Part shown: positions 102 through 51,581 of the stretch, in pieces
How the letters are laid out: every line of letters begins with the position of its first letter
Numbering within the stretch: position 1 is the first letter of the stretch
Assembly (NCBI GenBank): GCA_000092065.1
Contig: CP000585.1
From: Ostreococcus lucimarinus
Taxonomy: Eukaryota
DNA length: 64,000 nucleotides
Direction: 5' to 3' (one strand)
Translations under genes and position numbers: made by a program
The notes under the pieces: model-generated
Database searches by the model: none
Told to the model about the DNA's origin: nothing
What the model saw: only the letters and a program-made list of their open reading frames with translations

Positions 102-3100
102 ATGGCGCGCGCGCGACGCGGCGACGACGGCGAGCCGCGCGTCGGCGCGCTCGTGTTCGCGACGGTCGGGAGCGCGCGCGTCGGCGCGGACGACGATGAG
201 ATCGCGCGCGCGGGACACGCGAACGCGCTGGCGGTGAGCGGAAAGTACGGATACCTGGTGCACGCGCGCGGAACGACGGCGCGCGTGCTCAGGACGAGCG
301 AGGTGGCGCGCGAGGTTGAGGGTTGGCGCGCGAGAGAGGCGCCGGCGAGCGAACGGCGACTCGATGGTGATTGCGTCGACGCGTGCGCGCGATCGGACGG
401 TGGAGACGTGATTGAAATCGTCAGCATGACGCCGGATGAACGCGCGTTCGCGACGTGCGATCGGCGCGGGCGCGTGGAGTTTTACGCGGCGAAGGATTCG
501 AGCGACGGTAAGGCGAGAGGGGAAAAGTTTGGAGAGATGACGCTCGAGGCGCCGGTGCGGGCGGTGAAGTGGTGCGCGAATAGCGCGTCGTTTATCGCTT
601 TGACGGGAGATGCGTTGATGTACGTTGAGGCGGTGGGGAAGGAGCCGAAGGAGATTGCGACGAACGTGACGTGCGTGAGCGCGCGAGCGAACGGGACGCT
701 GGCGTGGGCGAGCGGTAACGTTATTTCAATCGCGTCGAGCGTTGATCCCGCGCAAACGGTGAAGGAAACGATCGAAATCAGTCCATTTCACGATCCCGAG
801 GATTCGGTGGAAATTGACGGGGTGTACGTGCACAGCGCTGACAAGATTTTGTTCACCTCGAGAAGCGTCGAAGATCCCGCCGACTGCTCCTTGGCCGTGC
901 TCAAGAAGGTCGATGGGAACTGGGTGTGCACGCGCCTCGAATCCGCATTCGACATCGATTCCGAAGTTGTTGATTTGACTGGTCCAGTACTTGATGCGAG
1001 CGCGTTCAGTCCGTGGAATGTGGTGTTCGCGACGCATCGAAAAGCTTGGGACAACCAGCTGTTGACTCTTCAAATAACGCGCGACGCGGATCCTTGCGTG
1101 CTCGAAGTCGAAGACGACAGATGCAGCGCTTCGGTGCCGATGACTGAGGACGACGAAAACAACTACGTCACGGGCTTAGGATTAGACTTGACTGGCGCGG
1201 GTGGAACCATGCTCAACCCGCAGGATAAAAGCGCGCCCGAGTTGGCGAAAGGACCAGCGATTGTTTTCAGCACCACAGATGGAAGAATTACGATTCTGAA
1301 ATGTGCGAACTTGGACACCGAGGAAGCGCGAATCGGAGCGCAGTCGATACAGACGCAGCTGACGCTACCGACGGATTCGCCGCCGGCGATGATTCAAGCA
1401 GGGTCGTCTCCAACGCTCACACCTGCAAAGCCTTCTTTCGGCTTCGGTTCGGCGCCACCGGCGACTCCAACGTTGGCTTTCACGGCCAGTTCGCCTGCCG
1501 CTACGGCGGCGAGCACGCCGGCGTTTAGCTTTAAGCCCACTGAAACGTCCGCGACACCGGTGGCTTCGACACCAACCTTTAGTTTCAAGCCGCCGGAAGC
1601 GACTGCAACGCCTCCTCCAGCGTCCACACCTGCGTTCAGCTTTAAGCCCGCCGAGGCGGCATCGACGCCGGCGTTCAGCTTTAAGCCCGCTGAGGCGGCA
1701 TCGACGCCGGCGTTCAGCTTTAAGCCCGCTGAGGCGGCATCGACGCCGGCGTTCAGCTTTAAGCCCGCTGAGGCGGCATCGACGCCACCCCCAGCTTCGA
1801 CGTCGGCGTTCAGCTTTAAGCCGCCAGAACCAGCGAAGACGCCACTTGCGTCGTCAACGCCAGCGTTCAGCTTCAAGTCGCCCGAACCTTTGGCTTTTCC
1901 GACCGCGTCTCCTGCGTCCGCGCCGGCGTTCAGCTTTAAGTCGCCCGAGCCAGCCAAACCACCGGTGTCTCCGACGCCAGTGGTGTCTCAGCCGACGTCT
2001 TCTCCCAAGCCTATCGAAACGGTAAAACCAATCGAGAGCGTGAGTTTACAGTCTGTCGCTCCGACGCCACCGCGAACGACACCACCGCCGAAACCGGCGA
2101 CGCAGTCCGCGGCCGCACCGCAATCGCCAGTCGAGAAAGGCATGGAACTTCTCAAGCGGTTGAGCATCGGGGAAATCGACGTAGACACGGCACAGCTCGA
2201 GCTTAAAGGATTGATTTTGGATAGCACACCGACAAAGAGCACAAAAAAAGACTGGAGCGTATCTATGGCTAAGTTTACGCCGATCGATACCACGCGTTCA
2301 CCTGGCGTAAACTTGCAAAGCTCTCCGCTTCCTTCCTGGGGCAAGAAATTAGAAGACATTAGGCGATCGAAGGAGCAAGCGAGCTCGGAGGCGGACGGCC
2401 TTAAGGCGATAGAAGACGATATGGCTTCTGTGATCGCCGAAGTAGGTGCCATGCTTGAGGATGTCACGAGCGTGACAAAATCTTTAAGCGGCGAAATCAG
2501 TGATGGTTTGATGCCAGGAAAAGCAGACATTGCCAAGATTGAACAGTCGTCGGCGTCTGCGAAGACGACCATCGAATCGTTGTTGGACGGGAGCAATCAG
2601 TTGCGCAGTCGACTCAATGAGTTGTGGGCCGCAAACGCTTCGGACGAAACATTGCGAAGCGAGCTAGAGAGCTTGATTTCGGCGGCGTGTGAAGAAATCG
2701 ATGAGAACTCAAACGTCGACGATACGCGGGAACTCAGTCCTGCATTGAAGGATGTCCAGGACAACATGCACAAAGACATGCGTACGGTGCTAGAGATGGC
2801 GGCGGATCTCGAGGCCTCAGTTGAAAGACTAGAAGCCGCCAAGAGAGAAGCCAATCGCCCTAAGCCGAAAACAATTATTCGTAGTGGATTGATAGCATCA
2901 AAGGTAGACACCTCCGCGAGTTTCACCGCGCAGATGAACGGCATTGTGAAAGCCATTAACACGCAAGCCGCGGTGATTGAGGCGCAAGCTGAAAAGTTGG
3001 ATACACTTCTGGCGCGCGTTCAAGAAGAGGACGCGCCGCGCGTATCGAAGATTAAGAGCACATTACCAAAGGAAAACACGCCGCCGATACCGGCGAAACC

Positions 3101-47379: not shown

Positions 47380-47501
47380 CGACGCGCCGTGCGCGCGCAA
47401 TTGCGCGGCGTTCGACATGGCGCGCGCTCGTGTGACGCGATTGCGCGCGCGCCGATGCCGTCCGCGTCAGACGTCGCCGCGCGTCGTCGCGCGCCGCGGC
47501 G

Positions 47502-48644
47502 ATGCGAGCGATCGAAGGGCACGCGCTGGGCTACGCCTGGGCGTTCGCCGCGTCGCTCGCGAACGCGTCGCAGGACAACTTGAGGAAACTGGCGTCGAAC
47601 CGGGTGAAACAACCAATCGAGATCGTCGCGCTGAGCGAAGTGTTCAACGTCGTCGCGCTGGCGTGCGCGGTCGGCGCGAGTGGGAAGTGGGGGAAGTTCG
47701 CGCGGTACGCGCGACGAGGGGATCTCGTGGCGCTGGCGGCGGCGGCGGGATGGTTGAAGGCGTTGAGCGCGGCGCTGTTGCAACGGGCGCTGCGGTTGAC
47801 GCCGTTGTCGCTGTGTGTGCCGTACCTGGCGTTCACGCCGCTGTGGTTATTGGTGATTAGCTTTTTCTTAGTGCACGAGACGCCGACGTTGCGTGGAGTG
47901 TTGGGGGTGATGGTGATCACGGTCGGGGCGTACATGTTGAACGCGAACAGCGCGGCGCCGGAGAAACTGGAAAAGAGTCCGCGGTTGGAGGAAGGGCTCG
48001 TTCGCGGCGGTGGTGGGTCTTCTGGACGGGTTCGGAGTGCGAGAGAGTCGCTGGAATCGCTCGCGACGCCGCCGACGAACGGTGCGGGTTGGATGTCTAT
48101 AGCGTTTAGCGAAGCCGCGGCGTCGTCGTTTCGCGAGGAGCGTTACGGTGTGAGGTTGGGATGCGTCGGGCGATCAGTTGCGAGGCAGGTGACGACCTTG
48201 CGCGCGAATCCTGGGAGTTTAATCACTCTCGGCATCGCCGCCGTCTACGCTCTCGTCGCTGATCTCGACAAGCTCGGTAAATTGCACTCCGACGACTTGC
48301 TCGTGTTCATCTTTTTGCAGAGATGTTTCCTATTGGCGCCACCTCTGACGTACGTCATGGTGAAAAATCCAGCAGCCTTCAACGTTTTCACGAAAACAAA
48401 GAAGGTTGGCTGCGCGTTAGCTCTCATAGGTTTCCTCGACATCGCCTCCATGTACGCCTTCCTACAGTCGCTGAACTACATCTTCACGAGCTACGCCGTC
48501 GCGGCCAAGCGTACGAGCATCCTAGCCAGCGTCGTCGGCGGCGCGCTCTTCTTCAAAGAGCCCATCGCCCGGCGATTGCCGTATATATTCATCATGTTCA
48601 TCGGCATGGCGTTGATATTAATCGCCGATGCCGACAAGCATTAG
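47502..48644 (+). CDS. Multi-pass membrane protein (10 predicted TM; possibly EamA/DMT-superfamily transporter)
   Basis: 380-aa ORF with repeated hydrophobic helices in two halves. Family assignment is tentative. Divergent from the Rab gene, with ~120 bp between start codons. Confidence 0.45.
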   Translation: MRAIEGHALGYAWAFAASLANASQDNLRKLASNRVKQPIEIVALSEVFNVVALACAVGASGKWGKFARYARRGDLVALAAAAGWLKALSAALLQRALRLTPLSLCVPYLAFTPLWLLVISFFLVHETPTLRGVLGVMVITVGAYMLNANSAAPEKLEKSPRLEEGLVRGGGGSSGRVRSARESLESLATPPTNGAGWMSIAFSEAAASSFREERYGVRLGCVGRSVARQVTTLRANPGSLITLGIAAVYALVADLDKLGKLHSDDLLVFIFLQRCFLLAPPLTYVMVKNPAAFNVFTKTKKVGCALALIGFLDIASMYAFLQSLNYIFTSYAVAAKRTSILASVVGGALFFKEPIARRLPYIFIMFIGMALILIADADKH

Positions 48645-48739
48645 CGCGCGCGACGGTGTCAATACAACACGAGCGCCGTCGGTGCGGGTTCAAAACTCTT
48701 CACCCCATCCCCTTCACTCTCGCCCGCGCGCCTCTCGCG

Positions 48740-50449
48740 ATGGCCGACCAAGACAGCAATGAAAAAGAAATTGAAAGTACGTCGCGCCCCATCGCATCGC
48801 TCGATCGATCGCGTCGCCCGCGCCCTCGGGCGCGCGTGCGGCGTTGATAAAGCGCGCCGATGACTTCGGCCTAGGTCGAGTGCGCGTACGGTTTCACCTC
48901 GCTCGCGTCGCTACGAACGCGCTCGAGACGCTCGCGACGCGCGCGCGAGGTCATGAATGGCACGCGTGACCACGAGCGAACGACTGACGAGACATTCGCG
49001 CCGCGCGCGCGCGCCGTTGACGATGAACAGTATGGAAGATGCGCAAGGTGCGACTGGCGGCTCGAACTCGACGCGCTCGTGGGAGCAAAAACGATGAGAA
49101 ATCGCGACGTGTCGGCATCGCGAACGAGGTGAACGAAGACTGACGGACTATTATATCGTTTTACTCGAACGTAGCTCATCAAGAAGCTGGAAGACGCGCG
49201 CGGGAACGGGACGTCGATGATTTCGCTCGTGATCCCGCCGAAAGGGCAAGTGAACCTGGTGCAAAAGATGTTGATCGAAGAGATGGGCACGGCGACGAAC
49301 ATTAAGTCTCGAGTCAATCGACAGTCAGTGCTCGATGCGATCGGTTCGGCACAACAGCGCTTGAAGCTGTACAATAAAGTGCCGCCGAATGGGCTCGTCG
49401 TGTATTGCGGCGCGGTGTTGACGGAGAGCGGGAAGGAACGGCAGATGAAGATTGATTTTGAACCCTTCAAACCGATCAACACGTCGTTATACATGTGTGA
49501 CAACAAGTTTCACACTGCAGCGTTGAGTGATTTGTTGCAAAACGATCAGAAGTATGGTTTCGTCGTAATGGATGGTAACGGGACGCTCTTCGGAACCTTG
49601 TGCGGGAACCATCGCGAGATTCTACAAAAGATTTCCGTTGATTTACCGAAAAAGCACGGTAGAGGTGGTCAATCCGCGCTTCGTTTCGCGCGTCTGCGTT
49701 TAGAAAAACGTCAAAACTACCTTACCAAGGTTGCTGAGCTCACGACGCAGCATTTCATCAGTAATGATAGGCCCAACGTCGCCGGCTTGGTGCTCGCCGG
49801 TTCGGCGGATTTCAAGAACAAACTCGCCGAGGCGGATTGCTTCGACAGTCGCCTTCAAGAAGTCACCTTGGCCGTAGTCGATGTCTCTTACGGCGGTGAA
49901 AACGGCTTTAATCAAGCGATTGAGCTCTCCGCGGACACGCTTTCGTCGCTCAAGTTCATCCAAGAAAAGAAATTGGTTGGCAAGTTTTTCGACGAAATCG
50001 CCCAAGACACGGGCAAGTACGTTTTTGGTATCAACGATACTTTGACGTGCTTGGAAATGGGAGCGGTTGAAACTTTGGTGTGCTGGGAAGATCTCGAGGT
50101 CGCGCGCGTGACCCTGAAAAATAGCAGCACCGGAGAGGAGACGATTAAGTTTTTGCGGCCCGAAGAGACTGAGGGCAATGAAAACGACCACGTGCGCGAC
50201 GCCGATGGCAACGATTTGGAGATTGTCGAATCCGTCCCGCTGTTGGAGTGGCTAGCAAACGAGTACAAGAAGTTTGGTTGCGTCTTGGAACTCATCTCGG
50301 ATAAGTCGCAAGAGGGTAACCAATTTTGCCGTGGTTTCGGCGGCATCGGCGGTTTGTTGAGATATCAAGTCGATCTCACCGCCTTCGAAGTCGCCGCCGA
50401 CGCCAACTCCGACGATTGGGACTCCGACGATTCCGAATGTTTCATCTAA
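48740..50449 (+). CDS. ERF1: Eukaryotic peptide chain release factor subunit 1 (eRF1), 3 exons including a 17-nt microexon
   Basis: Exons 48740..48776 ([12 protein letters not shown], phase 1, donor GTACGT), 49031..49047 (tatggaagatgcgcaag giving IWKMRK, acceptor gaacAG, donor GTGCGA), 49175..50449 ([23 protein letters not shown]...). NIKS motif ([12 protein letters not shown]), GGQ motif ([15 protein letters not shown]), and near-identity to eRF1 through to the acidic C-terminus. Confidence 0.85.
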
Positions 50450-50578
50450 CCCTTCCCGTTGCATTGACTCGATCCTAACGCCACATCCCATAGCATTAAC
50501 AATAAGACGACCCTGGCAGTTGTTCGACGCCGCGCGCGCGAGCGCCTTATCCTTCACACGCGCGCGCGTTCGCCGTCG

Positions 50579-51085
50579 GTGCCCTCCCGCGACGCGGCGC
50601 GCCTCCGTAAACGTACCATGGGTATCGCCGCCAGCGCCACGTCTGGCTCCATCGCGCGTCGCGTCGCTCGTGACGACGACGCAACGAACAAGTCGTTAGC
50701 GTTACACCCCGTGCACGCCGACGCCCGCGCCCTCCCGCCCTGGACGCCGTCCTCCATCATCGACGCCCTCCCGGACGACATGGTGGACATCATTCTCGAC
50801 CACTGCACCGGCGTCGACCTCGCGCGCGCGGAGTGCGTGTGCACGAGGTTGCTCTCGCTCGCGCGACGCAGCGAACGAAGGTGGCGGGACGCCCTCGCGC
50901 GCGACTTCGGCGTGCAATTCGCCCCAGCCCCGGGCGTCGAACGACTGCCGGGGCTGCCGCGAGGATCGATGAAGCGCGAGTACGTCGCGTGTCGAGAGAC
51001 GCTCCGCGCGATCGTGCGTGGGTGCGCGAAAGGCGCCGACGGCGGCGTCCCGAACTTTGCGCTCGGGACGAGGGTGTACGCGTGA
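50579..51085 (+). CDS. F-box-like domain protein (small)
   Basis: F-box-like segment IIDALPDDMVDIILDHCTGVDLARAECVCTRLLSLA. 168 aa. The stop lies only 28 nt before the TMEM18 start on the same strand, so gene-model status is uncertain. Confidence 0.4.
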   Translation: MPSRDAARLRKRTMGIAASATSGSIARRVARDDDATNKSLALHPVHADARALPPWTPSSIIDALPDDMVDIILDHCTGVDLARAECVCTRLLSLARRSERRWRDALARDFGVQFAPAPGVERLPGLPRGSMKREYVACRETLRAIVRGCAKGADGGVPNFALGTRVYA

Positions 51086-51113
51086 ACGCCGCAGTCTTAG
51101 ACGCGCGCGATCG

Positions 51114-51581
51114 ATGGATTTCGATCGCCTGCTCGAGGGCGCGCTGAAGGATGCGCGTCGACATCTCGGGTCGTCGAGTAAGGACGGCTGGCGCGCCGCC
51201 ATCGACGCGTGGGTTGGGTTTTATAGCGCGGTGGATTGGCGCGAGCCGTGGTTGAGAGCCTTGCTCGCCGCCCACGCGTGCTTGTTTATCGTCGTTTTGC
51301 TCACGCGAAGAGATGAGCGAACGCAAGGAGTGTTGTTCTGCGCGTGCGCGGCGATCGTATTCATGGCGGAGCGCATCAACGCTCTGGCGGCGGCGAAGTG
51401 GGAAACCTTCGCGACTCAAAACTACTTCGACCCGAGGGGTCGGTTCACGTCCGTCGTGCTCTCCACGCCGCTGGTCGTGGCGACGCTCGTGATTTTGGTG
51501 AATTTGTTACTCATCATGACGTCGATGATGGTTGAAGTGGCGAAACGGCGCAAAGACGCGGGGGTGAAGAAGACTCAATGA
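51114..51581 (+). CDS. TMEM18: TMEM18 (transmembrane protein 18) homolog
   Basis: Internal Met MDFDRLLEG. Conserved DWREPWL motif (human DWTEPWL), then three TM helices and a basic C-terminal tail (KRRKDAGVKK), as in TMEM18. Confidence 0.7.
   Translation: MDFDRLLEGALKDARRHLGSSSKDGWRAAIDAWVGFYSAVDWREPWLRALLAAHACLFIVVLLTRRDERTQGVLFCACAAIVFMAERINALAAAKWETFATQNYFDPRGRFTSVVLSTPLVVATLVILVNLLLIMTSMMVEVAKRRKDAGVKKTQ

Follow-up and report, generated by a model that had tools for sequence, protein, structure and literature searches.

A 17-nt microexon in the eRF1 gene of Ostreococcus lucimarinus, most likely created by a lineage-specific intron

Introduction

The gene for the release factor eRF1 in Ostreococcus lucimarinus raises the question of how its N-terminus is encoded. 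Within the window (the whole 64,000-nt stretch of contig CP000585.1 that was analysed), the longest plain open reading frame starts at MISLVIPP, position 49217, which corresponds to residue 33 of the assembled protein. A sequence-only reading of this locus had correctly placed that start about 35 residues into eRF1. It proposed that a 37-nt first exon and a 17-nt microexon restore the conserved N-terminus, and that microexons of this size are easily missed by gene predictors. Here we ask whether this structure is present in transcripts, whether it was already annotated, and how the microexon arose.

Results

Identity of the product and gene model

By its sequence features, the gene product is the eukaryotic class-1 release factor eRF1, and every feature of the family that we looked for was found. 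The three Pfam domains score above their cut-offs (eRF1_1, PF03463, 85.6 bits; eRF1_2, PF03464, 147.5; eRF1_3, PF03465, 115.7), with the eRF1_1 match beginning at residue 17 of the assembled protein. The translation contains the catalytic GGQ motif as well as the stop-codon recognition motifs NIKS and YxCxxxF, the latter as YMCDNKFH. Structure alignments extend over residues 1-429 with chain 8ip8_bl (E = 1.5e-194) and over residues 3-436 with human eRF1, 1dt9_A (E = 4e-190). The eRF1 coding region between 49200 and 50400 has a GC content of ~0.48-0.55, compared with 0.60-0.72 in neighbouring genes, introns and spacers; this may reflect the codon-usage bias of a highly expressed gene.

The features of the gene are listed in Table 1. 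Exon 1 reads ATGGCCGACCAAGACAGCAATGAAAAAGAAATTGAAA from its ATG and is directly followed by GTACGT. The microexon is flanked by gaacAG and GTGCGA, and the A carried over from exon 1 together with TATGGAAGATGCGCAAG is translated as IWKMRK, which returns the frame to phase 0. The triplet TAG at 49172-49174 has two roles: it reads as a stop in the frame of the downstream open reading frame, and it provides the acceptor AG. Joined in code, the three exons yield a 1329-nt coding sequence for 442 amino acids; a direct join of exon 1 to exon 3 was rejected, being out of frame. In all of these respects, from the coordinates and phases of the first two exons to the dual role of the TAG, the sequence-only reading was borne out.

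Table 1. Exons, introns and putative branch motifs of the eRF1 gene, in window coordinates.
Feature	Position	Strand	Description
eRF1 exon 1	48740..48776	+	37 nt, 12 codons plus first base of an Ile codon; ends in phase 1
Intron 1	48777..49030	+	254 nt, GTACGT...aacAG, phase 1; missing from L009-L011
Intron 1 branch motif GACTGACG	48982..48989	+	putative branch A 48987, 43 nt before the 3' splice site
Microexon	49031..49047	+	17 nt, TATGGAAGATGCGCAAG; residues 13-18, N-terminal domain
Intron 2	49048..49174	+	127 nt, GTGCGA...cgtAG, phase 0; missing from L009-L011
Intron 2 branch motif GACTGACG	49138..49145	+	putative branch A 49143, 31 nt before the 3' splice site
eRF1 exon 3	49175..50449	+	1275 nt including the TAA stop at 50447-50449; C-terminal end SECFI

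Two further open reading frames extend over the end of the upstream EamA gene, the first eRF1 exon and the introns: 48323-48847 on the plus strand (174 aa), which shares its frame with the eRF1 ATG, and 48871-49506 on the minus strand (211 aa). They look like artefacts of GC-rich sequence and not like genes.

A chance origin of the microexon was excluded by considering every segment of the 398-nt interval between exons 1 and 3 that is bounded by AG and GT, restores the frame and is free of stops. The interval holds 11 such segments, and only one of them is 17 nt long. Its peptide, IWKMRK, scores 28 (BLOSUM62) against the human IWKIKK, for which the self-score is 34. When the interval was shuffled, a score of 28 was reached in 0/5000 cases and a score of 12 in 8/5000.

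Spliced transcripts

An uninterrupted 1329-nt open reading frame for exactly this 442-aa protein occurs in three Logan run assemblies (L009, DRR066263; L010, SRR11178170; L011, SRR17229570). When these contigs were aligned with the window by blastn, the blocks ended at 48776 and resumed at 49173 or 49175, with the microexon making up the 17 bases that separate the blocks. Removing 48777-49030 and 49048-49174 from the window gives a sequence that contains L010 and L011 without a single mismatch; L009 differs from it by one base, far downstream. Both introns are thus precisely removed, at the junctions that had been proposed. None of the three contigs contains the direct join of 48776 to 49175, which according to the sequence-only reading would speak against the microexon; all of them carry it. 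We infer that the three runs originate from RNA because both introns have been lost precisely from an otherwise identical, collinear sequence, for which there is no other plausible source than spliced RNA. A literature search on the three accessions found no citing papers. An additional 1548-nt JGI contig (L012) represents the spliced form from a related lineage, with the N-terminus MDDDANAKEIEMWKMRKLIKK.

The three contigs (window 47481-51537) run unbroken from inside an EamA-type transporter gene (47502-48644) across a 95-nt spacer and through eRF1, and L009 continues past eRF1 through an F-box gene and a TMEM18-like gene. Contigs that span adjacent genes could represent either overlapping or read-through transcripts in a compact genome or the merging of neighbours by the assembler. 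The sole mismatch of L009 in 3.4 kb is a single A/G difference at its position 3056 (window ~51149), in the TMEM18-like open reading frame, and may reflect strain variation (a SNP), an error in sequencing or a change at the RNA level.

Conservation within Ostreococcus

The comparison with related algae suggested by the sequence-only reading covers six further Ostreococcus loci from five lineages (L006, L001, L002/L004, L005 and, from O. tauri, L013), which were aligned or read individually. The microexon and its AG and GT flanks are invariant in all six apart from synonymous changes, namely ATA>ATT (Ile) in L005 and CGC>CGA (Arg) in O. tauri, and the intron interiors have diverged while the microexon has been kept. 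Similarly, an alignment of the upstream region shows that the 3' part of exon 1 and the following GTACGT are retained in other Ostreococcus lineages, with synonymous GAA/GAG and ATT/ATC changes. Across these lineages, intron 1 measures 212-271 nt and intron 2 127-137 nt. The nearest homologues, at 88-99% identity, are marine metagenome contigs in which the protein was always called as 409-410 aa from an internal Met, and their loci are syntenic, with EamA transporter, eRF1, F-box, TMEM18 and MA3 genes.

The O. tauri protein (XP_022839000.1 / CEF97971.1) likewise has 442 aa. In its gene, the first exon is again 37 nt long, the 17-nt microexon again encodes IWKMRK, and both introns sit where they do in O. 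lucimarinus. It differs in its first donor (GTGCGT), its intron lengths (212 and 135 nt, compared with 254 and 127), the CGC>CGA change and the replacement of E12 by Q. The annotated O. tauri gene range of 1676 nt exceeds the 1329-nt coding sequence by 347 nt, which is the sum of the 212- and 135-nt introns read in L013; the annotation is therefore consistent with exactly these two introns.

Introns and splice signals

Both introns have the make-up of U2-type GT-AG introns, GTACGT...GACTGACG...CAG for intron 1 and GTGCGA...GACTGACG...TAG for intron 2. Intron 2 contains the in-frame stops TGA and TAG, and its last three bases are themselves TAG. In the alignment, ACTGAC occupies the same place of intron 1 in L006, L001, L002, L004 and the window itself, and L005 lacks it there; in O. 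tauri, ACTGAC was found by eye in both introns. Measured from the 3' splice site, the motif of the Ostreococcus loci lies at -46 to -53 in intron 1 and at -35 to -41 in intron 2. Irimia and Roy (2008) described GACTGACG in 66.5% and ACTGAC in 87% of the EST-confirmed O. lucimarinus introns outside chromosome 2, which also have strong 5' splice sites, and reported a median intron length of 111 nt for this species (PMC2483917). The two eRF1 introns resemble these canonical introns in their strong 5' sites and in having GACTGACG/ACTGAC at a constrained distance; intron 1, with its 254 nt, exceeds the median, and nothing else about them is unusual. As spliceosomal introns of Ostreococcus, both are ordinary.

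From what is generally known about splicing in intron-poor eukaryotes, each intron is probably recognised singly, by intron definition, through its strong 5' site and the GACTGACG located 31-43 nt from its 3' site. Under intron definition, splicing of a 17-nt exon would not call for dedicated factors.

A snoRNA or other structured RNA hosted in the introns was rejected as a candidate: an Rfam search of 48600-49300 returned no match at E <= 1, and the fold of intron 1 has no excess stability relative to shuffled sequences (z-score +0.85). As an introner test, intron 1 was compared with the 64-kb window by blastn; the hits within this window were all short, CG-rich and of low complexity, and none was a copy of full length.

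Intron positions in other lineages

In Bathycoccus prasinos, a Micromonas-like alga, Chlamydomonas reinhardtii and Coccomyxa subellipsoidea, the eRF1 gene has a phase-0 intron between WK.K[KR] and L[IV]K, exactly where intron 2 of Ostreococcus lies, whereas the first coding exon has 48-54 nt and there is neither a phase-1 intron nor a microexon. For instance, Bathycoccus (L015, and P0031, with 97% identity to B. prasinos) reads without a break from the start codon through IEMWKI(K/R)K, after which comes an intron running from GTGCGC to an AG that precedes TTA or CTC. The same arrangement, with the phase-0 intron only, is found in a Mamiellaceae lineage (L014) that is most similar to Micromonas commoda, at 80%. 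When the annotated proteins were mapped with splicing to their loci, the first exons measured 54 nt in Chlamydomonas (L017) and 48 nt in Coccomyxa (L018), both ending at the phase-0 position of intron 2. The animal outgroup Branchiostoma (L019) uses neither position, its first intron lying later, inside the Gly codon of ARG|NG; consequently, intron 2 cannot be called pan-eukaryotic. The phase-1 intron 1 is absent from all five (L014, L015, L017, L018 and L019).

Chlamydomonas and Coccomyxa also have further downstream introns that Ostreococcus does not have. They share at least three phase-0 introns within the first 120 codons (after KDQ, YNK and WK.KR), of which Ostreococcus has lost all but the one at WK.KR, and its exon 3 is a single uninterrupted exon.

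Existing annotation

An exact-sequence look-up showed that the assembled protein is identical at every residue to XP_001417750.1 / ABO96043.1 of O. lucimarinus CCE9901 (UniRef A4RXH2), a record named "predicted protein". The match was seen at the protein level, over all 442 residues; given this identity, the annotated model necessarily includes the microexon peptide IWKMRK. The gene model is thus already known from GenBank and RefSeq, and the reference annotation did not miss the microexon. The proposal that the microexon completes the N-terminus of eRF1 holds, and the idea that this N-terminus needs restoring does not. A literature search on Ostreococcus and microexons found nothing relevant to the eRF1 gene.

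Discussion

The splice junctions, the comparison across Ostreococcus and the match to the annotated protein, all of them shown directly, make the following model nearly certain: a nuclear eRF1 gene in which two U2-type GT-AG introns enclose a constitutive 17-nt microexon, giving a 442-aa eRF1 whose residues 13-18 are microexon-coded. The exon is internal, lies between two introns, is present in the spliced contigs and falls within the bound for a microexon (a coding exon of at most 30 nt).

Two other readings of the gene structure were weighed against this model. If there were no microexon and translation began at the internal Met at 49217, the product would be a 410-aa, N-terminally truncated eRF1. 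This is what intron-blind callers report, on 475 contigs for a sequence identical to the window frame 49217-50449 and in all close metagenomic relatives. Such a start is hardly conceivable next to spliced contigs with the full 442-aa frame and upstream exons under purifying selection, with synonymous changes only; it would also drop the first residues of the eRF1_1 domain, and the alignments to solved eRF1 structures all begin at the N-terminus. Alternative splicing of the microexon is a different matter, since skipping it (48776 to 49175) shifts the frame and intron 2 holds in-frame stops, so that either skipping or retention of intron 2 would give non-productive transcripts that could tune eRF1, for example through NMD. 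In plants, eRF1-1 is autoregulated via stop-codon readthrough and NMD, which lends this reading some plausibility. We nevertheless consider it very unlikely: the three assembled transcripts come from different runs, all include the microexon with both introns removed and comprise no other isoform, and the strong consensus splice signals are typical of constitutive introns.

As for the age of the microexon, the genes compared place the intron 2 position at least as far back as the chlorophytes. Intron 1 was most likely gained once, in the Ostreococcus stem, where it would have split an ancestral first coding exon of 48-54 nt into 37 + 17 nt; the choice between gain and loss rests on a handful of outgroups. 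Were intron 1 ancestral and the microexon old, the intron would have been lost independently in Bathycoccus, the Micromonas-like algae and the core chlorophytes. Intron loss is frequent in compact genomes, and Ostreococcus itself has lost downstream chlorophyte introns that Chlamydomonas and Coccomyxa keep. We regard an ancestral intron 1 as unlikely, however, as it requires at least three independent losses instead of one gain and the intron is missing from the sister genus Bathycoccus and from every outgroup examined. A single gain remains the preferred explanation, and the modest addition of the present analysis is that intron 2 is shared by the chlorophytes compared and intron 1 is Ostreococcus-only among the lineages sampled, which points to a probable origin of the microexon.

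One may speculate that the Ostreococcus-specific intron 1, located 17 nt upstream of an ancient intron in a genome that ranks among the most compact of free-living eukaryotes, has been kept in all sampled Ostreococcus lineages for a function, such as a boost in the output of a highly expressed translation factor or feedback on eRF1 by non-productive splicing. Such a role is distinctly unlikely in our judgement.

Our findings also bear on sequence catalogues. In addition to the truncated frames, read-through eRF1 frames of 481-499 aa, in which intron sequence is translated, were found in Micromonas- and Bathycoccus-like relatives (P0031, P0036, P0052 and P0054). Truncated and read-through Mamiellales entries arise because prokaryote-style callers ignore introns. 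The expectation that gene predictors easily miss such microexons is therefore correct for intron-blind callers applied to metagenomes and does not extend to the reference annotation. Metagenome catalogues hold hundreds of Mamiellales eRF1 entries of 409-410 or 481-499 aa, which should not be read as true isoforms.

The biological weight of these results is small, the gene being an ordinary, constitutively spliced one whose model is already public. The locus nonetheless provides a clean, datable case of a lineage-specific intron making a microexon in an intron-poor, compact genome and may serve as a small case study of intron gain.
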